Assembly: GCA_963801665.1 (NCBI GenBank) | Contig: CAWDFL010000004.1 | Coordinates: 366,590 to 430,589 of the forward strand | DNA length: 64,000 nt | DNA from: an uncultured delta proteobacterium | Lineage (GTDB): Bacteria; Desulfobacterota; Binatia; Binatales; Binataceae | Reading direction: 5' to 3' | Shown here: in pieces, positions 5,473 to 60,488 of the stretch | Position numbering within the stretch: the first letter of the stretch is position 1 | Layout: every line of letters starts with the position of its first letter | Made by a program: the position numbers and the translations under genes | Notes under the pieces: model-generated | Database searches by the model: none | What the model was told of the DNA's origin: nothing | The model's input: the letters and a program-made list of their open reading frames with translations, nothing else

Positions 5473-7137
5473 CTAAGAGGTCTTGTCAGCGCCGTCACCC
5501 GCGCGTGCGGGCCGCGGCATCGCGCCGTTCGACTTCGCGTGCGCGCGGCTGCGCGGCTTCGCGTTATCCTTGTGCAGCTTGTACTCGACCGAGTCAACCA
5601 GAGCCTGCCAGCTCGCTTCGACCACGTTGTCCGACAGTCCGACGGTTCCCCATCGGCGCTTGCCGTCGGTCGATTCAATCAGCACGCGCACACGCGCCGC
5701 GGTGCCGCGGCCGTTGTCGAGCACCCGCACCTTGTAGTCCGCCAGATGCATCGTCGCCAGGTTCGGATAGTGCGGCACCAGCGCGCTGCGCAGCGCGGAA
5801 TCGAGCGCGTTCACCGGACCGTTGCCGATCGCGGCGTTGCGTGTGCGCACGCCGTCGGGACCCTCGATCACGACCACCGCCTCGCTGAATGGCGCCTGAT
5901 CCTCGTGCCACTTGTCGTCGAATACGCGGAAGCTCACGAACTCGAAGTGATCCTTCGCTCGCCCGAGCTTGCGCAGCATCAGGAGCTCGAACGACGCATC
6001 AGCGCCGTCGAATACGTAGCCCGCGCCTTCGAGCCTTTTAAGCTCGTCGAGCAGAGGCTCGATCTTGTCGTTGGAGGGATCGAGCTCGATTCCGAATTCC
6101 CGCGCCTTGTAGATCAGGTTCGCGCGGCCCGAGAGCTCCGAGAGCAGCACGCGCCGATCGTTGCCGACGCTCTCGGGCTCGATATGCTCGTAGGTGTGCG
6201 TGTTGCGCTGTATTCCCGACGCATGCAGTCCCGCCTTATGCGCAAACGCGCTGCGGCCGACGTAGGGCTGGCGCGCGAACGGCGAGATATTCGCGAGCTC
6301 GTACACCAGCATCGAAAGCTCGCGCAGATGCTTCAGCTTCGCTTGCGGAACGCAGTTGTAGCCGAGCTTCAATTGCAGGTTGGCGATAATCGAAACCAGG
6401 TTCGCATTGCCGCATCGCTCGCCGACGCCGTTAACGGTGCCCTGCACCTGCGACGCGCCCGCCTCGACGCCGGCGAGAGTGTTCGCGACCGCGACCTCGG
6501 AATCGTTATGGCAATGAATCGCGATCGGGCAGCTCACCGCGGCGCGCGCGGCTTTGATCGCGGCGTCGATTTCATGCGGCAGGCGGCCGCCGTTGGTGTC
6601 GCACAGGCAGATGATATCGACCTTGGCTTCGTCGACAGCTTTAAGGCACGCGATCGCGAAATCAGGATTCGAGAAGTAGCCGTCGAAGAAATGCTCCGCG
6701 TCGAAGATCGCTTCGTCCACGTGCTTTTTCAGAAACGCGATCGAATCGTTCAGGATTTCGAGGTTCTGCGCTTCCGAGATCCTGAGCGCCTCGCGCACGT
6801 GGAAATCCCAGGTCTTGCCGACGATCGTCGCGACCGGAGTCTCGGCGCGCAGCAGCAGTTGCAGGTTGCGATCCTGCGCCGCGCGCACTCCCGCGCGCCG
6901 CGTCGATCCGAACGCCGCGATCTTCGCGTGCTTCAGCTTGGCCTTCTTGATCTCACCGAAGAACGCCGCGTCGCGATCGTTCGAGCCCGGCCATCCGCCC
7001 TCGATATAGTCGAACCCCATGTCGTCTAGCCGCTGCGCGATCTGGACCTTGTCCGCGATCGTGAGCGAGACGTCCTCGGACTGGCAGCCGTCGCGCAAAG
7101 TGGTGTCGTAAACCTGGATATGTTTTGCAACCGCCAT
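5473..7137 (-). CDS. cimA: citramalate synthase (LeuA/CimA family)
   Basis: 554 aa. Has VYDTTLRDGCQSEDVSLT, an HMGL-like barrel and a LeuA-dimer C-terminus. The length and N-terminus fit the CimA type better than LeuA. Confidence 0.85.
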   Translation of the reverse strand: MAVAKHIQVYDTTLRDGCQSEDVSLTIADKVQIAQRLDDMGFDYIEGGWPGSNDRDAAFFGEIKKAKLKHAKIAAFGSTRRAGVRAAQDRNLQLLLRAETPVATIVGKTWDFHVREALRISEAQNLEILNDSIAFLKKHVDEAIFDAEHFFDGYFSNPDFAIACLKAVDEAKVDIICLCDTNGGRLPHEIDAAIKAARAAVSCPIAIHCHNDSEVAVANTLAGVEAGASQVQGTVNGVGERCGNANLVSIIANLQLKLGYNCVPQAKLKHLRELSMLVYELANISPFARQPYVGRSAFAHKAGLHASGIQRNTHTYEHIEPESVGNDRRVLLSELSGRANLIYKAREFGIELDPSNDKIEPLLDELKRLEGAGYVFDGADASFELLMLRKLGRAKDHFEFVSFRVFDDKWHEDQAPFSEAVVVIEGPDGVRTRNAAIGNGPVNALDSALRSALVPHYPNLATMHLADYKVRVLDNGRGTAARVRVLIESTDGKRRWGTVGLSDNVVEASWQALVDSVEYKLHKDNAKPRSRAHAKSNGAMPRPARAGDGADKTS

Positions 7138-7140
7138 CGG

Positions 7141-8382
7141 CTAAAGGGACTCCGCCTTGGCCGCGCTCGGGGCGCCGCCTACGAACGCGTCGTGCAGCGC
7201 GCGCATCGCCAGCTCTCCATACTTCGCATTCACCACGACTGAGACTTTGATCTCCGAGGTCGCAATCATCTCGATATTAATTCGCTCGGTCGCCAGCACC
7301 TCAAACATCCGCGCCGCGACTCCCGCATGCGTGCGCATCCCGACGCCGACGATAGAGACTTTCGCGACCTGCTCCTCGTGCCGCACGCCCGCCGCGCCGA
7401 TTTCGCCAGCGATCTTTTTCACCAGCTCGATCGCCCGGCGCAGATCGTCGCGCCCGACGGTAAACGTCATGTCGGTGCGGCCGTCCTCGCTCGCGTTCTG
7501 GATAATCATATCAACCACGATTCCCGCCGCCGCGATCGGGCCGAAAATCTTCGCCGCGAGTCCGGGCCGGTCGGCCACACCCGCGATCGTTATCTTGCTC
7601 TGGTTCTGGTCGAGCGTGACGCCGGAAACAAGCACGTCTTCCATCGATCGATCCTCTTGTCCCACCCAAGTTCCCTCACCTTCCGCAAAACTTGATAGCA
7701 CCACGATCGGAACATTGTAGCGGCGCGCCAGCTCGACCGAGCGTCCCTGCAGAACCTTTGCGCCGAGAGCGGCCATCTCCAGCATCTCGTCGTAAGAGAT
7801 GCGCTTGAGCTTCTTCGCGTTCTTGCAGATATTCGGATCGGCGGTGTAGACGCCGTCAACGTCGGTGTAGATTTCGCACGCGTCCGCTTTCAGAGCCGCC
7901 GCGAGCGCGACCGCGGTCAGGTCCGACGCTCCGCGCCCGAGCGTCGTGATATCGCCATTGGAATCGACGCCCTGGTAGCCCGCGACCACGATCACGTTGC
8001 CGCAGGCCAGCTCTTTTTCGACCCGATTGCACTCGATCGATTTGATCCGCGCGCGGCCATGATTCGAATCGGTCGCGATCTTCAACTGGTCGCCGAGAAA
8101 CGAAATCGCCGGCAGCCCCATCGCGCGCAGCCGAATCGCCAGCAGCGCCGCCGAGACCTGCTCGCCGGTCGCGACCAGCGCATCGGTCTCGCGTGGATCG
8201 GGCGTGTCGCTCAATTCCGACGCGAGCTTGAACAGCCGATTAGTCTCTCCCGCCATCGCGGACACTACTACGACCATGCCGTCGCCGGCCCGCCGTCCCC
8301 GCGCCACGCGTTCGGCCACAGCCTTGATTCGATCGACCGACCCGACCGAAGTTCCGCCATATTTCTGAACGATAAGAGCCAA
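7141..8382 (-). CDS. lysC: aspartate kinase
   Basis: 413 aa. TTG start MALIVQKYGGTSVG, and two C-terminal ACT domains (AKVSIVGVGMRTHAGVAARMFEVLA). Confidence 0.95.
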   Translation of the reverse strand: MALIVQKYGGTSVGSVDRIKAVAERVARGRRAGDGMVVVVSAMAGETNRLFKLASELSDTPDPRETDALVATGEQVSAALLAIRLRAMGLPAISFLGDQLKIATDSNHGRARIKSIECNRVEKELACGNVIVVAGYQGVDSNGDITTLGRGASDLTAVALAAALKADACEIYTDVDGVYTADPNICKNAKKLKRISYDEMLEMAALGAKVLQGRSVELARRYNVPIVVLSSFAEGEGTWVGQEDRSMEDVLVSGVTLDQNQSKITIAGVADRPGLAAKIFGPIAAAGIVVDMIIQNASEDGRTDMTFTVGRDDLRRAIELVKKIAGEIGAAGVRHEEQVAKVSIVGVGMRTHAGVAARMFEVLATERINIEMIATSEIKVSVVVNAKYGELAMRALHDAFVGGAPSAAKAESL

Positions 8383-8508
8383 GCGAAATGCGCCTTTACC
8401 CCCCGCTTTTCGGGGTGATCTAGCATTATGTGCGGAAACCCGCCCGCAAACCAGCCCCCGCTAGCGCCAGATAGTGGGTCAGTTTGAGATTTGCACCGTT
8501 CGCGATTT

Positions 8509-8630
8509 GTCATTCCCGCGCGCGTGGCTGCCGCGCGCGAGGAATCCCGGGGCGTCGGTTCTCGGAGCCGTGTGTAGCAGTGCCTCCCTCCTCCGGGATT
8601 CCTCGCGCGGCAGCCACACGCGGGAATGAC
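8509..8630. repeat. inverted doublet of a GC-rich hairpin repeat (REPIN-like)
   Basis: Left arm 8509-8550 is GTCATTCCCGCGCGCGTGGCTGCCGCGCGCGAGGAATCCCGG. Right arm 8593-8630 is its near-perfect reverse complement, with a 42-nt spacer. Each arm is itself a hairpin (ATTCCCGCGCG / CGCGCGAGGAAT). The same unit recurs at 58714-58749 and 59066-59105. Confidence 0.8.
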
Positions 8631-8700
8631 ATCTCGGCTGACCCGCCATCCGTTCACAGGCTTGCGCGCTCGGATGTCTTCCTGTTTACATTGCCCTGCG

Positions 8701-9033
8701 ATGCTTCCCGCCCGCACCTCGACGCGTAACCTGCTACTGGCTCTGATGCTGTGCGCGATCGGAGGATGCAGCACGTGGACCGGCGTGCGAGAGGATCCGT
8801 TGGGCCGCGAGCGGATCGTTTCTGCGTCTGGCTACAGCCTCGACGGATGCCAATCCGCGATGGACGAGCTGGCTCACGCCAAGGTCCAGATGGTGCAACA
8901 TACGACTCAGCTCGGCATCAACGTCCTCAGCTTCGGTTACGAGCCTTCTTATCTCTGCACCGGCATCGCGCCGGTGACGGGATCGCCTTCAGCTGCGCCC
9001 GACTCCTCATCCGAGGTTCCACCTAATCCATGA
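8701..9033 (+). CDS. hypothetical lipoprotein
   Basis: MLPARTSTRNLLLALMLCAIGGCS is a signal peptide with a lipobox Cys. Lower GC than the flanks. The start is uncertain; the track ORF begins at 8626, inside the repeat. Confidence 0.5.
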   Translation: MLPARTSTRNLLLALMLCAIGGCSTWTGVREDPLGRERIVSASGYSLDGCQSAMDELAHAKVQMVQHTTQLGINVLSFGYEPSYLCTGIAPVTGSPSAAPDSSSEVPPNP

Positions 9034-9563
9034 AGAAGCATCGGCGCAATCCATTTTCTCGTCTAGGACATTTGGTTTTTGTCGTGTGTATCGTGAGCGG
9101 CTGCTCGGTTTATATGGAGGCGACTCGCCCGACGCCAATCGATCTGACTACCTTCACACCCGGTCAAAGCCGCGCTTCGGTTTTTGACGATATAGGAGCA
9201 CCGGTGACCACGACGAAGAATGCGGCAGGAGAGAGCTGCGATCTCCATTTGCTCTACATAACTGGCTACGCAACTCCCGCCAAAGTGCCGATTGCAGTGG
9301 CCGAAGCGGCGGCCGATGTCTTCACTGCGGGACTTGCCGAGGTCTTGCTTTCGCCGGCCGAGTCGCTCACACGCAACGAAGAGAAACGCGTATGGTTCTG
9401 CTTCAAAAATGACTCGCTATTGAGCGTGACCGTCGAGAGTTTGCGTACGACAAAGCCGCACGATTTATCCCCGAACGCGACGACCGTCGAGTCATCCGCG
9501 AGCGGTTGGCCGATAGCCTCGACGACCGCCACTCCGATCGCATCGCCCAGTCCGATGCCTTGA
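9030..9563 (+). CDS. hypothetical lipoprotein
   Basis: MKKHRRNPFSRLGHLVFVVCIVSGCS (lipobox). ATGA overlap with the preceding lipoprotein gene. No family recognised. Confidence 0.55.
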   Translation: MKKHRRNPFSRLGHLVFVVCIVSGCSVYMEATRPTPIDLTTFTPGQSRASVFDDIGAPVTTTKNAAGESCDLHLLYITGYATPAKVPIAVAEAAADVFTAGLAEVLLSPAESLTRNEEKRVWFCFKNDSLLSVTVESLRTTKPHDLSPNATTVESSASGWPIASTTATPIASPSPMP

Positions 9564-9855
9564 GTCGATTTTTGGCGATCGAGCCACGCGCTATCAAGCG
9601 GTCGATCGTGTCGTCGTCTTTTTCCATCAGTCGCTCTCGGAAAGCGCCGTTTCAAAGATCCGGCGTATCTTCGGCGAAAACGGTGTTTCGCGATTTGCAA
9701 ATTTTACCAAACGAACCCACCGCGATTTTGGCCGGAAAATGCAGTTATTTCCTCGGAAATTCGCTGTTTTTGGCGCGGTTTTTCGAATATTGGAAAAACG
9801 AAGCCAACGATATCGAAGCCACCGCGTCTCGAACCTCGTCAGACGCGGCCCTCGC

Positions 9856-10362
9856 TTACGCGAAGCGCGCTCGCAGACGCGCGAGGACTTCGCGATGGCG
9901 GTTGTCCGCCGCCTTGAACTCGATTCGGCGGACGCTCGCGCTGGCGTAGGTTATCCGCACCTCCAGATGCTCGAGCTCACTCGCCTCATTCAGCCGCTCG
10001 AACCATTCGACCGCCGCGACGCCCTCCGAAAAAAGATACTCGCGCAGGCCGAGGTCATCGACGCCCGCCGCGTCGAGCCGGTAGAGGTCAATGTGAAAGA
10101 GCGGCAGGCGCCCCTGATGCTCCTGGATCATCGTGAAGGTCGGGCTCAGGATTTCCTGCTCGTCCAGATGCAGCCCGCGTGCGAGCCCCTTGACGAAGCA
10201 GGTTTTGCCCGCGCCGAGCTCGCCGATAAGCCCGAGCAGCTCGCCGCCTTCGAGGACCGAGGCGAGCCGCCGCCCCCACGCTTTGGTCTCGTGCGCGGAG
10301 CGGCTCTCGACGATCAGCACGATCGCGCCGCTGTGAGCGGTATCGTGATTCGCTTCGGGCAT
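9856..10362 (-). CDS. tsaE: tRNA t6A37 biosynthesis ATPase TsaE
   Basis: 168 aa. Walker A LIGELGAGKTCFVKGLARGL, and a conserved SPTFT..LFHIDLYRL segment. Confidence 0.85.
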   Translation of the reverse strand: MPEANHDTAHSGAIVLIVESRSAHETKAWGRRLASVLEGGELLGLIGELGAGKTCFVKGLARGLHLDEQEILSPTFTMIQEHQGRLPLFHIDLYRLDAAGVDDLGLREYLFSEGVAAVEWFERLNEASELEHLEVRITYASASVRRIEFKAADNRHREVLARLRARFA

Positions 10363-14690: not shown

Positions 14691-14780
14691 GGTGGCTCGC
14701 TCAAGAGCGATCCTAGCAAAGCCGCGCCTACGCCGCATCGCGCGATGAAACCCATTCGTCATTAAACCAACGCGCTAGGC

Positions 14781-14890
14781 GAGAAATCCGGGTATGGACA
14801 TAACACCGAGCCAACGCGACGTGCAGCGGCCCACCGTCCGGGATTTCTCCCGGAGCCTGCCCTGAGCAACGCCGAAGGGGTCGAAATGAC
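14781..14890. repeat. variant hairpin repeat (GTCATTTC...GAGAAATCC type) with a partial inverted partner
   Basis: The minus strand of 14838-14890 reads GTCATTTCGACCCCTTCGGCGTTGCTCAGGGCAGGCTCCGGGAGAAATCCCGG. GAGAAATCCGG at 14781-14791 is complementary to CCGGGATTTCTC at 14838-14849. The termini resemble the GTCATTCC...GGAATCC family. Confidence 0.5.
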
Positions 14891-15113
14891 GATTGGGTCT
14901 CAGTGCATGATTATCGCAGCCTCCGGACGGCCCTAACACGTTGTAACATGAGCAGAATCTTGATTCGTCATTTCGAGCGAGAGCGGCCGGTCGCGAAGAT
15001 TCGTGCGCCTCACGTCGAGCCGGCACACGCGGCGAGAAATCCCGAGGCGGCCGTGCTCCAAAACCGCGGACACGCAGTTGCCTCGCGGAGCCTATTCGAG
15101 TGAAGTTGCTCAG

Positions 15114-57275: not shown

Positions 57276-57299
57276 CCATTGGCAAGTGGAGCCGCGGAA

Positions 57300-58625
57300 A
57301 TGAAGATAGGATATTTCACCGAACGTCCGGCCAGGTGGGTTCCCGAGGACGCGATCCTCAAGAACGAGGCGTATTTCGCGGTCTCGAACAGGTATTTCGA
57401 CCGCGAGCAGGCGGCCACCGACTATAATTATTATCTCGACGAGAACTGCTACGCTGAGGAGCTCGGCTACGATATCGTCGCGCTGAACGAGCATCACGGC
57501 AACCCGTTCTGCATGGGCAGCGTGATGAACGTCGAGGCGGCGATCCTCGCTCGCATCACCAAGCGGGCGAAGATTTGCCTGATCGGCAATCCGCTCCCGG
57601 TGATCAAGCATCCGCTCCGGATGGCCGAAGAGCTGGCCGAGATCGATCTGATCTCGCGCGGACGGATGATCACCGGATGGGTTCGCGGCGCGGGCTCGGA
57701 GCAGTTCTTCAACAACGCCAATCCCGCCTACAACCGCGAGCTGTTCAACGAGGCGCACGATTTTATCGTGCAGGCGTGGACGCGGCCCGGTCCGTGGCGC
57801 TACGAGGGCAAGCATTTTCATTATCGCCACGTAAATCCGTGGGCGTTGCCGTACCAGAAACCGCATCCTCCGTTCTGGATTCCCGGAGTGATCAGCCCCG
57901 AAACCGCGAAATGGTGCGCCGAGCATCGCTATCCGTATATCGGACTCGGCACCGCGCTCGGACCAACCGCCGACCTGTGGGATTTTTATGCCGACGAGGC
58001 GCGCAAGCAGGGCTATCAGGCGGGCCCGGAAAATTTCGGCTACGTGATTCCGACCTTCGTCGCCGAGACAGACGAGCGCGCGCAGGACCTAGGCCGCGGC
58101 TTCGTCTACGGCGGTGGGCAAAATGCATTCTCGCGCACCGAGCACACGCTCCCGCCCGGCTACAATTCGAAGGAGGCGACCCGACGCCTCGCCAAGCAGC
58201 CGCAGGGAAGCTGGCTCGGAGTAAGCGGCGACAAGCTGCGCGGCCATACCGAGGAATCCCAGCAGGTCGATTACGACGAAGTCCGCCGCAAGTTAGCCGC
58301 CGGCCTTCAGAAAGCGCAAAAATCGCTGACGATAGTAATCGGCAGCCCCAAGACGGTAATTCCAAAGTTCAAAACGATCCTGAACGTGCTCCGCCCAGGC
58401 GCTCTGATTATTTTCAGCGTGCAAGGACAGGTGAGCAATCAGGATCGCCAGACCAGCATGCGCCTGATCGCGCAAGAGGTAGTCCCGGCGCTCCGCGAAT
58501 ACGCCCGCGAGATCGATCTCCCCGACGCCTTCGAACGAGTCCCCGGCTCAGTAAAGCTCCAATCCGGCACCAGCCGAATCCCGGTAGCCGATCGCGCCCC
58601 GTTGAAGGAGTTGGGAATTTTGTAA
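57300..58625 (+). CDS. LLM-class (luciferase-like) flavin-dependent oxidoreductase
   Basis: MKIGYFTERPARW...YDIVALNEHHGNPF...LAEIDLISRGRMITGW. About 440 aa. Confidence 0.88.
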   Translation: MKIGYFTERPARWVPEDAILKNEAYFAVSNRYFDREQAATDYNYYLDENCYAEELGYDIVALNEHHGNPFCMGSVMNVEAAILARITKRAKICLIGNPLPVIKHPLRMAEELAEIDLISRGRMITGWVRGAGSEQFFNNANPAYNRELFNEAHDFIVQAWTRPGPWRYEGKHFHYRHVNPWALPYQKPHPPFWIPGVISPETAKWCAEHRYPYIGLGTALGPTADLWDFYADEARKQGYQAGPENFGYVIPTFVAETDERAQDLGRGFVYGGGQNAFSRTEHTLPPGYNSKEATRRLAKQPQGSWLGVSGDKLRGHTEESQQVDYDEVRRKLAAGLQKAQKSLTIVIGSPKTVIPKFKTILNVLRPGALIIFSVQGQVSNQDRQTSMRLIAQEVVPALREYAREIDLPDAFERVPGSVKLQSGTSRIPVADRAPLKELGIL

Positions 58626-58713
58626 CGAAAGCGCCGACACTGACGATCTGATCGCTGTTTATCTTTGTCAATCTGACGGTCGTCGATCTGAGTGCGTCCT
58701 CAGATCTTTGTGT

Positions 58714-59105
58714 GTCATTCCCGCGCGTGGCTGCCGCGCGAGGAATCCCTGATTCGCTTCAACTGTTACCCTCCGATGCATCCACGAACTTACTACGTCT
58801 ACCTCATGAGCAGCCTCTCGCGGACTCTCTATGCCGGCGTAACCAATGATCTCGAACGCCGCGTGCAGGAGCACAAGGACGGCTCTTCCCGTTCTTTCAC
58901 TGCCCGATACAAGATGAACCGCCTCGTGTACTTCGAGGAGTTCGCCGATATCCGAGAGGCAATATCTCGCGAGAACCAACTCAAACAAATGGCGCGTAAA
59001 AGCAAGATCAAGCTGATCGAGTCGATGAATCCGATTGGCGCGATCTGAGCGATGAATGAAAACTCGGGATTCCTCGCGCGCGGCAGCCACGCGCGCGGGA
59101 ATGAC
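58714..59105 (+). mobile_element. GIY-YIG nuclease gene bracketed by inverted copies of the GTCATTCC...GGAATCC hairpin repeat
   Basis: Left arm 58714-58749 is GTCATTCCCGCGCGTGGCTGCCGCGCGAGGAATCCC. Right arm 59066-59105 is GGGATTCCTCGCGCGCGGCAGCCACGCGCGCGGGAATGAC (reverse complement). These are the same repeats as the empty doublet at 8509-8630. Confidence 0.6.
58776..59048 (+). CDS. GIY-YIG nuclease family protein (about 90 aa)
   Basis: MHPRTYYVYLMSSLSRTLYAGVTNDLERRVQEHKDG....FTARYKMNRLVYFEEF..IREAISRENQLKQMARKSK. The track ORF start at 58692 reads through the left repeat and is probably not the real start. Confidence 0.85.
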   Translation: MHPRTYYVYLMSSLSRTLYAGVTNDLERRVQEHKDGSSRSFTARYKMNRLVYFEEFADIREAISRENQLKQMARKSKIKLIESMNPIGAI

Positions 59106-59217
59106 AGAAAGGGCCTTCCCCCCATTTGAACTATCCGGAACCAAAAAACACGCCTGAACAGTTCAGCCCGGCAAACCTTGAATCTCGCCGCCGGACCTAA
59201 TAGGCGTTAGTGTTGCT

Positions 59218-60400
59218 ATGAGCGACATAGAATCATTCCGAAAAGAGACTCGCGCGTGGCTCGAATCCAACTGCCCGCCCGAGATGCGCAAGCCCGCGCA
59301 ATCCGAAGACGACACCTGCTGGGGCGGCCGCCGATGGAAATTCCAATCCGAAGCGCAGCGCCTGTGGCTCGAGCGGATGGCCTCCAAAGGATGGACCGTC
59401 CCCGAATGGCCGCGCGAGTACGGCGGCGGCGGCCTCTCCCGCGACGAGGCCAAAGTCCTGCGCCAGGAGATGCGCGCGCTCGGATGCCGCTCGCCGCTCG
59501 ACAGCTTCGGCATCTGGATGCTCGGGCCGGCGCTGCTCAAGTACGGCTCCGAAGAACAGAAGCGCGAGCATCTGCCGAAAATCGCGCGCGGCGAAATCCG
59601 ATGGTGCCAGGGCTATTCCGAGCCCGGCTCCGGCTCCGACCTCGCCTCGCTCCAGACGCGCGCCGAGGACAAGGGCGATCACTACATCATCAACGGCTCG
59701 AAAATCTGGACCTCGTACGCCGACAAGGCCGACTGGATCTTCTGCCTCGTCCGCACCGATCCCGCCGCGCCCAAACACGAAGGAATCAGCTTCATCCTCT
59801 TCGATATGGAGAGCGCCTGGCGTCTCGACCAAGCCGATCACGCTGATCTCCGGCGCGTCGCCGTTCTGCCAGACCTTCTTCGACGACGTCCTGGTGCCGA
59901 AGGCGAACCTCGTCGGCAAGCTCAACAAGGGATGGGAGATCGCGAAGTACCTGCTGACCCATGAGCGCGACATGATCGGCGGGATGGGCCAGACCTCGGA
60001 AAACCGCTCGCTCGGACAAGCCGCGACCGAGACCGTCGGCGTGGAAAACGGGATCCTCGCCGATCCGGTTTTGCGCAGCCAGATCGCCGCGTTCGAAATC
60101 GACGCGTGGGCCTTTCGCCTCACGATGGAGCGTGTCGGCGACCTAGCGAAAGCCGGCCAAGCGCATCCTGCCGTATCGTCGCTGCTCAAATACTACGGCA
60201 CCGAGCTCAACAAGCGGCGCAACGAGCTGGTGATGTCGGCGGGCGGCGTGAACGCTCTCGAATGGGAAGGCGAGCGCTCGCACAACGGCGCCACCGCGCG
60301 CGCATGGCTGCGCTCGAAAGCAAATTCGATCGAAGGCGGCACCAGCGAAGTCCAGCTAAACATAATCGCCAAGCGCATCCTCGGTTTGCCCGACGCGTAA
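59218..60400 (+). CDS. acyl-CoA dehydrogenase family protein with a 1-nt frame disruption near 59815
   Basis: ORF 59218..59964 is ACAD-like up to ..GISFILFDMES. The frame of ORF 59894..60400, extended upstream, reads PGVSTKPITLISGASPFCQTFFDDVLVPKANLVGKLNKGWEIAKYLL... to the normal C-terminus. Confidence 0.8.
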
Positions 60401-60412
60401 TGACTCTCTTGT

Positions 60413-60488
60413 GTCATTCCGAGCGCGAGCGGGCGATGCATGTCGCGTCGTGCGCGCCACGTCGAACGGCAAGCGTCGCGAGGAATCT
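60413..60488. repeat. longer variant of the GTCATTCC...GGAATC repeat
   Basis: GTCATTCCGAGCGCGAGCGGGCGATGCATGTCGCGTCGTGCGCGCCACGTCGAACGGCAAGCGTCGCGAGGAATCT, in the spacer between the two ACAD genes. Same termini as the 36-42 nt units. Confidence 0.5.

Follow-up and report, generated by a model that had tools for sequence, protein, structure and literature searches.

A probable Ssn-family GIY-YIG nuclease gene and its cognate hairpins form a discrete block in Binataceae DNA

The window analysed here is a 64-kb stretch of DNA from an uncultured soil bacterium of the Binataceae (contig CAWDFL010000004.1, positions 366,590 to 430,589 of the forward strand; positions given below without a locus name count from its first nucleotide). 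Between a luciferase-like monooxygenase gene (57279-58625) and two acyl-CoA dehydrogenase genes it carries a small GIY-YIG nuclease gene bracketed by inverted copies of a GC-rich hairpin. Judged from its sequence, this is very probably an Ssn-family gene together with its cognate hairpins, and hairpin, gene and hairpin make up a discrete block. As a member of the Ssn/SRM systems it is not new in kind, the architecture having been published in March 2025. An earlier sequence-only reading had described a REP/RAYT-like arrangement built around a GIY-YIG enzyme; the novelty which that implied is unsupported, because both the architecture and its likeness to REP/RAYT and IS200 elements were published in 2025 as Ssn/SRM (PMC11893778). 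What is new is a Binataceae clade in which the hairpin ends point outward, exact unit boundaries, a metagenome-assembled genome (MAG) with three copies, and a series of gain and decay at one intergenic site.

Ssn proteins are single-domain GIY-YIG nucleases of about 94 amino acids (CDD cd10448, GIY-YIG_unchar_3; Chenal et al., Nat Commun 2025, PMC11893778). SsnA of Neisseria meningitidis (NMV_0044) binds the NTS hairpin, CGTCATTCCCGCGMAVGCGGGAATCYRG, only as single-stranded DNA (ssDNA) and on one strand only, cuts a few nucleotides upstream (5') of it, and lowers transformation by NTS-bearing DNA about 5-fold (PMC11893778). The same study, in which homology to SsnA was accepted at E < 1e-10, found an SRM near 71% of Ssn homologues and on both sides of 42%, and already drew the likeness of SRM/NTS to IS200/IS605 and REP/BIME (PMC11893778). 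The locus in the window is laid out as follows.

58685-58706, + strand: terminator-like stem-loop of the upstream monooxygenase gene; context, outside the unit
58713-58749, + strand: left SRM/NTS-like hairpin, TGTCATTCCCGCGCGTGGCTGCCGCGCGAGGAATCCC, from sequence, repeat search and folding
58750-58775, + strand: leader of 26 nt between left hairpin and start codon, from alignment with other type A units
58776-59048, + strand: ssn-type GIY-YIG gene, ATG 58776 to TGA 59048, 90 amino acids, ending ...NPIGAI*
59034-59059, + strand: site of a 1-nt deletion in codon 87, from comparison with the C-termini of homologues
59066-59106, - strand: right SRM hairpin, its outer end being the right unit boundary, from sequence, folding and unit alignment

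The Neisseria sequence used for comparison was the SsnA orthologue of N. gonorrhoeae (L081 601-885, 94 amino acids, on a gonococcal chromosome filed in PLSDB), whose gene is flanked by canonical NTS. Its identity to the window protein, after correction of the frame, is 42% (pairwise E = 4e-23, 71.6 bits), and tblastn with the window protein reached the gonococcal orthologue at E = 9e-14 in a 7.3-Gb database, within the published cut-off. The catalytic residues Y6, Y17 and E64 of SsnA have their counterparts in Y6, Y19 and E66 here, which do not vary among 16 relatives. The Pfam GIY-YIG domain PF01541 matches residues 6-77 of the 90 (E = 1.3e-14) and no further domain was found, in keeping with the single domain and length of about 90-100 amino acids that mark Ssn proteins. 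An NTS-like hairpin stands on both sides of the gene (58713-58749 and 59066-59106); its 5' arm, GTCATTCCCGCG, matches the NTS arm base for base, the 3' GGAATC is common to both, and the C that follows the palindrome in NTS is present in the window hairpins. By tblastn this is the only GIY-YIG gene in the window.

The right hairpin is the reverse complement of the left one plus two extra CG dinucleotides, and an exact-repeat search consequently breaks the inverted repeat into three arms of 19, 15 and 15 nt. The core pattern ATTCCCGCGCG-N(3-15)-CGCGCGAGGAAT occurs three times in the window against 0.00 expected from 100 dinucleotide shuffles. Folded as ssDNA, the left hairpin gave -11.6 kcal/mol (z = -3.35) and the right hairpin -16.0 kcal/mol (z = -3.84), so that the bracketing of a GIY-YIG gene by inverted GC-rich hairpins, first noticed in the sequence-only reading, is borne out by sequence, domain match and folding. 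The distances it gave, 26 nt from hairpin to start codon and 17 nt from stop codon to hairpin, are correct for the frame as read; in the frame that matches the homologues the stop codon lies at 59057-59059 and the 3' gap is 6 nt.

Three results weigh against the assignment to Ssn. The published SRM pattern, HGTCWYN(0-2)YYVSBRHN(0-5)WNVSBRGN(0-2)RNCYNB, has no match in the window; the stem-loop of 36-40 nt is at least 5 nt too long for it, a limit of the search pattern rather than of biology. The only relatives with solved structures are UPF0213 proteins (1zg2, E = 3.5e-8; 1ywl, E = 8e-7; about 37 bits), and a PDB sequence search returned no structure of SsnA. Finally, searches of NCBIfam, PADLOC, PHROGs and Rfam gave no match. 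The Rfam covariance models in particular gave no hit across the whole 64 kb at the gathering threshold, relaxing the search of 58600-59250 to E = 10 brought up noise alone, and a reading of the hairpins as an RNA motif was dropped for this want of Rfam support.

The pairing of gene and hairpin is also found in relatives. Relatives of the protein were encoded at 80 metagenome loci, 68 of which had complete 150-nt flanks, and random positions in 815 kb of Binataceae DNA served as background. A hairpin with a GTCAT end lay within 150 nt of the gene at 53 of the 68 loci, compared to 1.3% of background positions, and on both sides at 29, compared to 0%; one of the checks proposed with the sequence-only reading, whether other GIY-YIG copies are flanked too, comes out in its favour. 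The density of TGTCAT was 7.6 per kb beside the genes and 0.21 per kb in the background, a ratio of 36, and 62% of these sites had a complementary 5-mer within 70 nt against 12% in the background. At least five distinct stem 5-mers were seen, each paired with its own complement. A second check, whether hairpin families co-vary with the nuclease clade, likewise gave a positive answer: hairpin class and orientation tracked protein clustering to an extent matched by none of 2000 permutations, and proteins were on average 71% identical in same-class pairs versus 60% in different-class pairs, a result that co-inheritance alone would also give. The closest relatives have a type A layout, with a + hairpin 17-31 nt upstream of the gene, a - hairpin 12-33 nt downstream, and GTCAT ends that point outward as in the window. 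GTCAT ends that point inward mark the type B layout, which is that of a second clade (GTCATCCTGAGCG...) and of the gonococcal gene.

These figures bear on the idea that generic REP-like hairpins (REP, repetitive extragenic palindrome), acting as terminators or stabilisers of mRNA, simply happen to lie beside an unrelated UPF0213/YhbQ-type nuclease or a free-standing homing endonuclease. Such a coincidence would suit the UPF0213 nature of the nearest solved structures and the terminator-like stem that adjoins the left hairpin, the T-rich tail of 58685-58706 abutting it. However, we consider it highly improbable, as the association is about 60-fold over background across 68 independent loci, the hairpin type tracks the protein clade, the hairpins have no T-tract, the protein with its 90-94 amino acids in total has no DNA-binding domain of the homing-endonuclease kind, and it scores 71.6 bits against SsnA compared to about 37 bits against UPF0213.

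Several observations on these relatives stand apart from the association itself. The closest plasmid-borne homologue (L082, Planktothrix agardhii plasmid NZ_LR882964.1, 18847-19131; 56% identity) has hairpin pairs on both sides and sits between an MmeI-type restriction-modification gene and the DISARM gene drmA, a defence-island context. At L035, in a MAG with a Binataceae-like monooxygenase, a hairpin at 5609-5632 matches the canonical Neisseria NTS consensus (CGTCATTCCCGCGCAAGCGGGAATCCAG) and is paired with a second inverted hairpin. Only six relatives were found in 2.9 million viral contigs, and a phage origin was discarded on that count.

The hairpins also affect annotation. As the sequence-only reading had warned, gene callers fuse the hairpin to the open reading frame (ORF): the ORF from GTG 58692 yields a false N-terminus, ...VCHSRAWLPREES..., and homologues in databases show the same effect. 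In P0002, P0005, P0034, P0046, P0061 and P0075 the N- or C-terminal extensions are translated flanking hairpins; the extensions CCHSRAWPARGIPD of P0046 (N- or C-terminal) and ESGIPRAAATRGND of P0002, P0005 and P0075 are examples, and database homologues are extended in this way at both ends. The hairpins thus cause false N- and C-terminal extensions of these genes in public databases. Exact-sequence look-ups of the 118-residue ORF and of the second acyl-CoA dehydrogenase returned no record.

The boundaries of the unit are sharp. When five type A units were aligned with their flanks, identity was 63-82% between TGTCAT and ATGACA and 19-52% outside, and homology between paralogous units ended exactly at TGTCAT...ATGACA; the outer end of the 58713-58749 hairpin, where this homology starts, is the left boundary. 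Within the unit even the leader at 58750-58775 is akin to the leaders of other type A units (GGAyyTCTGCT...CCGCTCC-ATG). Such units sit at different loci in related genomes, and one MAG, ERZ25039587, holds three on three large contigs, each beside unrelated genes. Their proteins are 81-85% identical to one another and 66-71% identical to the window copy, and this closer mutual identity suggests amplification within that lineage. In two of these units the ends match within the unit and differ between units, with loops TGGCTGC (L173) and TCTGCTTTGCCTGG (L174); the left end of the third unit (L178) is decayed. The 5' flank of units is usually T- or pyrimidine-rich.

The syntenic loci available for this intergenic site come from Candidatus Binataceae MAGs of soil and groundwater, and none of 80 has a GIY-YIG gene within 5 kb. 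Among the six closest, the hairpins of this locus are present only in L001 and L002, besides the window itself. L001 has the same two hairpins abutting (...GAGGAATCC|GGGATTCCTC...), with homologous outer flanks and without the 316-nt gene cassette, and in L002 the left hairpin remains together with a diverged trace of the leader. The intergenic DNA of L003 and L005 is short, unrelated and free of hairpins, L004 has an inverted pair of another hairpin family, and L006 a 1.07-kb insert. In a neighbour-joining tree of 3.6 kb of flanking genes the window groups with L001 (98% bootstrap) and then with L002 (88%), with L003 and L005 outside. On the simplest account the ancestor of the window, L001 and L002 gained the full unit once; the gene was then precisely lost in L001, which kept both hairpins (through CCGG microhomology or slippage across the paired arms), deleted in L002 and frameshifted in the window. 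The claim of the sequence-only reading that the unit is a derived, inserted state agrees with the absence of the unit from syntenic relatives and with the 88% clade. The unit occurs at this locus in a small clade only, in a state of decay, while its hairpins persist elsewhere as pairs and singletons.

The frameshift concerns the end of the gene. Homologues are mostly 94 amino acids long and end in NPxWRDLSxE. In the window codon 87 is one base short, and the +1-shifted frame from 59036 reads WRDLSDE*, the conserved C-terminus of the 94-residue family, in which W88, D90 and L92 are nearly invariant (15 homologues). The loss of this base makes the window copy either a pseudogene or the product of an assembly error, and counts against an active gene here: the window copy may be inactive. 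One database homologue, P0061, is also frameshifted, near the same C-terminal position. A comparable defect lies in the first acyl-CoA dehydrogenase gene (59218-60400), where an extra T at 59818 (GAGCGCCTGGCG in the window; GAGCGCC-GGCG in L001, L003 and L005) splits the gene into two ORFs; L003 and L005 have intact read-through ORFs, and the extra T is either a real frameshift or an assembly error. It is a serious possibility, if somewhat short of an even one, that the window copy is a dead relic with a real frameshift, an inactive nuclease and hairpins left as inert repeats. The deletion removes the nearly invariant W-x-D-L C-terminus, the sister lineages L001 and L002 are without the gene, and the adjoining dehydrogenase gene is likewise frameshifted. 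However, with two indels of one base each inside 800 nt, and a MAG contig of long-read style, faulty assembly may be the cause; a single G dropped from CCGGAT would account for the indel in ssn, and the other 86 codons are intact and conserved.

Hairpins are not confined to this locus. The window contains eight copies or variants, all intergenic; besides the two at the gene these are the following.

8508-8547 (+ strand), spacer of about 45 nt, 8593-8631 (- strand): doublet of the same hairpin, tail to tail and with no gene between, upstream of the aspartokinase gene
14758-15043: cluster of the related hairpin family GTCATTTC...GAGAAATCC, between an NAD(P)H-hydrate repair gene and pdxJ
14758-14793, + strand: decayed copy in the cluster, followed by a 47-nt spacer
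14841-14890, - strand: cluster copy with a 24-nt insertion in the loop
14967-15043, + strand: long-loop cluster copy
60413-60488, + strand: long-loop variant, GTCATTCCGAGCG...CGCGAGGAATCTC, between the two acyl-CoA dehydrogenase genes

The sequence-only reading had placed such hairpins at 8509-8630, with variants at 14781-14890 and 60413-60488. All three were found again, and the copies at 14758-14793 and 14967-15043, which it had missed, were added. Their presence varies among relatives. The right copy of the 8508-8631 doublet is kept in L163-L166, and the left copy and spacer are in the window only. In L164-L166 a 2.6-kb insert (7272-9894) encoding DUF5925/AAA and UDG-like proteins occupies the exact place of this left hairpin and spacer, beside the conserved right hairpin. 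At 14758-15043 there are three hairpins in the window and L163 and a single short one in L164-L166. A direct repeat, TCGTCATT, is common to the edges of this block, and with boundaries of this kind insertion and deletion between direct hairpins are equally possible; TCGTCATT was discounted as a target duplication, a deletion of that kind being an equally good account of it. Of seven genomes, four have the 60413 variant (the window, L001, L002 and L005) and three do not (L003, L004 and L006); in L001 (7865-8032) two such hairpins lie head to head, their GTCAT ends separated by 18 nt, the opposite of the tail-to-tail pairs. The long-loop forms (14967-15043 and 60413-60488) showed no folding as closed hairpins (z about 0 to +1), and loops vary by indels of 24-50 nt. 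Inverted pairs with spacers of 44-48 nt recur (8508-8631, 14758-14890 and L004), with spacer similarity that is marginal at z ~2; none of the flanks or spacers is repeated in any of the sequence compared.

The intergenic site itself looks like a hot spot for such elements. In L004 it holds an inverted pair, GTCATTTCGAGCC...GAGAAATCCCG, with a 44-nt spacer (6440-6550), and a solo CCCCTTCCC...GGGAAGGGG hairpin at 6652. In L006 the same monooxygenase-to-dehydrogenase site (6336-7401, corresponding to 58626-59217 in the window) holds a gene for a 119-residue DUF559 protein (Vsr-like PD-(D/E)XK; 6489-6848) within 45-nt inverted repeats at 6403-6447 and 6844-6888, each made of the hairpin CCTCTCCCTGACAGGGAGAGG and then AGGTGAGGGTCATT. 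Hairpins of this family are frequent at other Binataceae loci and do not occur in the window, and DUF559 homologues in L011 (two genes) and L096 adjoin them. Among the papers available for searching, none linked DUF559 to hairpin repeats. The cassette may be a second system of small nuclease plus cognate hairpins, and its position at the same site hints that such a combination is possibly a wider design. L096 (1047-2380) carries a DUF559 gene and an ssn homologue (2001-2291) on one metagenome contig; every hairpin there is of the CCTCTCCC...GGGAGAGG type, with no GTCAT hairpin among them, so that some loci may mix families of hairpins and nuclease genes.

If the window protein behaves as the biochemistry of SsnA would predict, it would bind its hairpin only when single-stranded, on the strand 5'-TGTCATTCC...GGAATCC-3', and would hydrolyse the backbone about 3-4 nt 5' of the hairpin's GTCAT end. 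The left hairpin has the cleavable orientation on the + strand (5'-TGTCATTCC...GGAATCCC-3') and the right hairpin on the - strand. As the two copies face outward, nicks are predicted a short way beyond either end of the unit: around 58709/58710 for the top strand and around 59109/59110 for the bottom strand. Binding, cleavage and cut position are thus predictions for the window protein, and a part of the nuclease in the spread of hairpins or unit would be hypothetical. Short partial tandem duplications of the GTCAT end are found just outside several hairpins in L084 (~1800-1850 and 2175-2200), L082 (935-1010), L144 and L159. They lie near the expected cut site, as in CTGTCATTCT...CTGTCATTCT or in Planktothrix, with three CTGTCATTCTGAGTTCTCCTGTG copies, and may be scars of repair.

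To our knowledge, GIY-YIG nucleases hydrolyse DNA and have neither strand-transfer or joining activity nor a covalent intermediate, unlike the HUH enzymes of the RAYT type (REP-associated tyrosine transposases). With such chemistry any spread would need host repair, recombination or replication restart. Whether the unit moved as a cassette by some route is an evenly balanced question in our judgement; that Ssn itself catalysed the movement is a good deal less probable. The strongest version of mobility makes the Binataceae block with its outward GTCAT ends a new autonomous element: the 94-residue enzyme would nick at hairpin inverted repeats of about 45 nt that serve as ends, host repair or replication would finish the event, and gene-less pairs and solo hairpins would be its non-autonomous progeny, comparable to REPIN/RAYT. 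We hold this to be unlikely, although a fair body of evidence points towards it. Unit homology ends exactly at the hairpin termini; three paralogous units lie in unrelated contexts in one MAG and are closer to each other than to the window copy, with ends alike within a unit and unlike between units; the presence of the unit at this site is derived, and hairpins were gained or lost at two other sites; the outward orientation places the predicted nicks beyond both ends; and the same site holds a different hairpin pair in L004 and the DUF559 nuclease cassette in L006.

A number of findings weigh against mobility. A target-site duplication was sought at 16 units and none was seen, there being no direct repeats at their flanks. 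There is no clean empty site to set against a filled one: where relatives lack the unit, their entire intergenic region is different as well, and as this region is unrelated in L003 and L005, clean insertion of the 392-nt unit is not demonstrable. Near-identical copies of the unit were not seen either; the paralogues are 15-20% diverged and give no sign of recent movement. The spacers of pairs are not significantly related (z ~2), the presence or absence of hairpins at 14758-15043 is explained equally by deletion between direct hairpins, and no strand-transfer chemistry is known for GIY-YIG enzymes. In Neisseria and the type B clade, moreover, the GTCAT ends point inward, which agrees poorly with hairpins as element termini. 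Should an element of this kind be confirmed, with a 94-residue GIY-YIG hydrolase behind it, prokaryotic mobile DNA would gain a new mechanistic class. The Binataceae data make the question of mobility testable through the exact unit boundaries, the three-unit genome, the series of gain, loss and decay, and the class with outward orientation.

The unit might instead serve the host, as a system that restricts ssDNA or modulates recombination in the way known from Neisseria, with hairpins marking DNA, the nuclease trimming incoming strands, and the hairpins beside the gene being regulatory or incidental. The roughly 5-fold effect of SsnA on transformation by NTS-bearing DNA in N. meningitidis (PMC11893778), the intergenic position of every hairpin in the window, as in Neisseria, and the place of the Planktothrix plasmid homologue between an MmeI-type restriction enzyme gene and drmA are all consistent with such a role. 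We nevertheless regard it as doubtful for this locus. The gene was lost twice in close relatives and is frameshifted here, which is not expected under purifying selection, and the host-serving view fits repeated loss less well. In addition, one MAG holds several diverged paralogues, each with its own hairpin variant, PADLOC gave no match, and competence in Binataceae is not on record.

Whatever the role of the unit, Ssn proteins are the first known site-specific nucleases that cut ssDNA only and are of interest for molecular tools; a new specificity may come with each new pair of protein and hairpin, and the hairpin described here stands out by its longer stem-loop and bulged A.

Set against known systems, the window protein resembles the UPF0213/YhbQ proteins (1zg2, 1ywl) in size and fold, but its similarity to them is weaker than to SsnA and they have no reported association with hairpins. 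With GIY-YIG homing endonucleases of the I-TevI type it shares the catalytic fold and a patchy distribution with decay reminiscent of selfish genes. Homing enzymes, however, have a separate DNA-binding domain, cut double-stranded DNA and reside in introns or phage genomes, whereas the window protein is a bare catalytic domain encoded in a chromosomal intergenic region, with homologues that are rare in viral contigs. IS200/IS605 elements likewise have subterminal hairpin ends that are recognised as ssDNA, and make no target duplication; in contrast to the unit, their ends are not inverted repeats, both cuts are on one strand, and their TnpA is a tyrosine HUH enzyme, a protein for which this locus has no counterpart. 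A target-site duplication together with a clean empty site, the mark of an insertion sequence or a miniature inverted-repeat transposable element, was found at none of the 16 units or relatives compared. The REP/REPIN-RAYT systems come closer, as the gene of the enzyme presumed to act on the hairpins lies between inverted copies, both intergenic singletons and inverted pairs occur, and recognition is of a single strand. They differ in having an HUH/Y1 transposase with a covalent intermediate where the window has a GIY-YIG hydrolase only, and in the Binataceae the pair spacers are not demonstrably conserved and several paralogues are possible per genome. From the Ssn/NTS system of Neisseria the window departs in its stem-loop of 36-40 nt with a bulged A (about 28 nt in NTS), in the T rather than C before GTCAT, in GTCAT ends that face outward rather than inward as around the gonococcal gene, and in its host, an uncultured soil bacterium of a clade known from sequence alone and not a symbiont or pathogen. 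What the two have in common is a single-domain GIY-YIG protein of about 94 amino acids with the same catalytic residues, a hairpin of the form GTCATTCCCGCG...GGAATC, hairpins that both flank the gene and are dispersed between other genes, and cognate variants of protein and hairpin.

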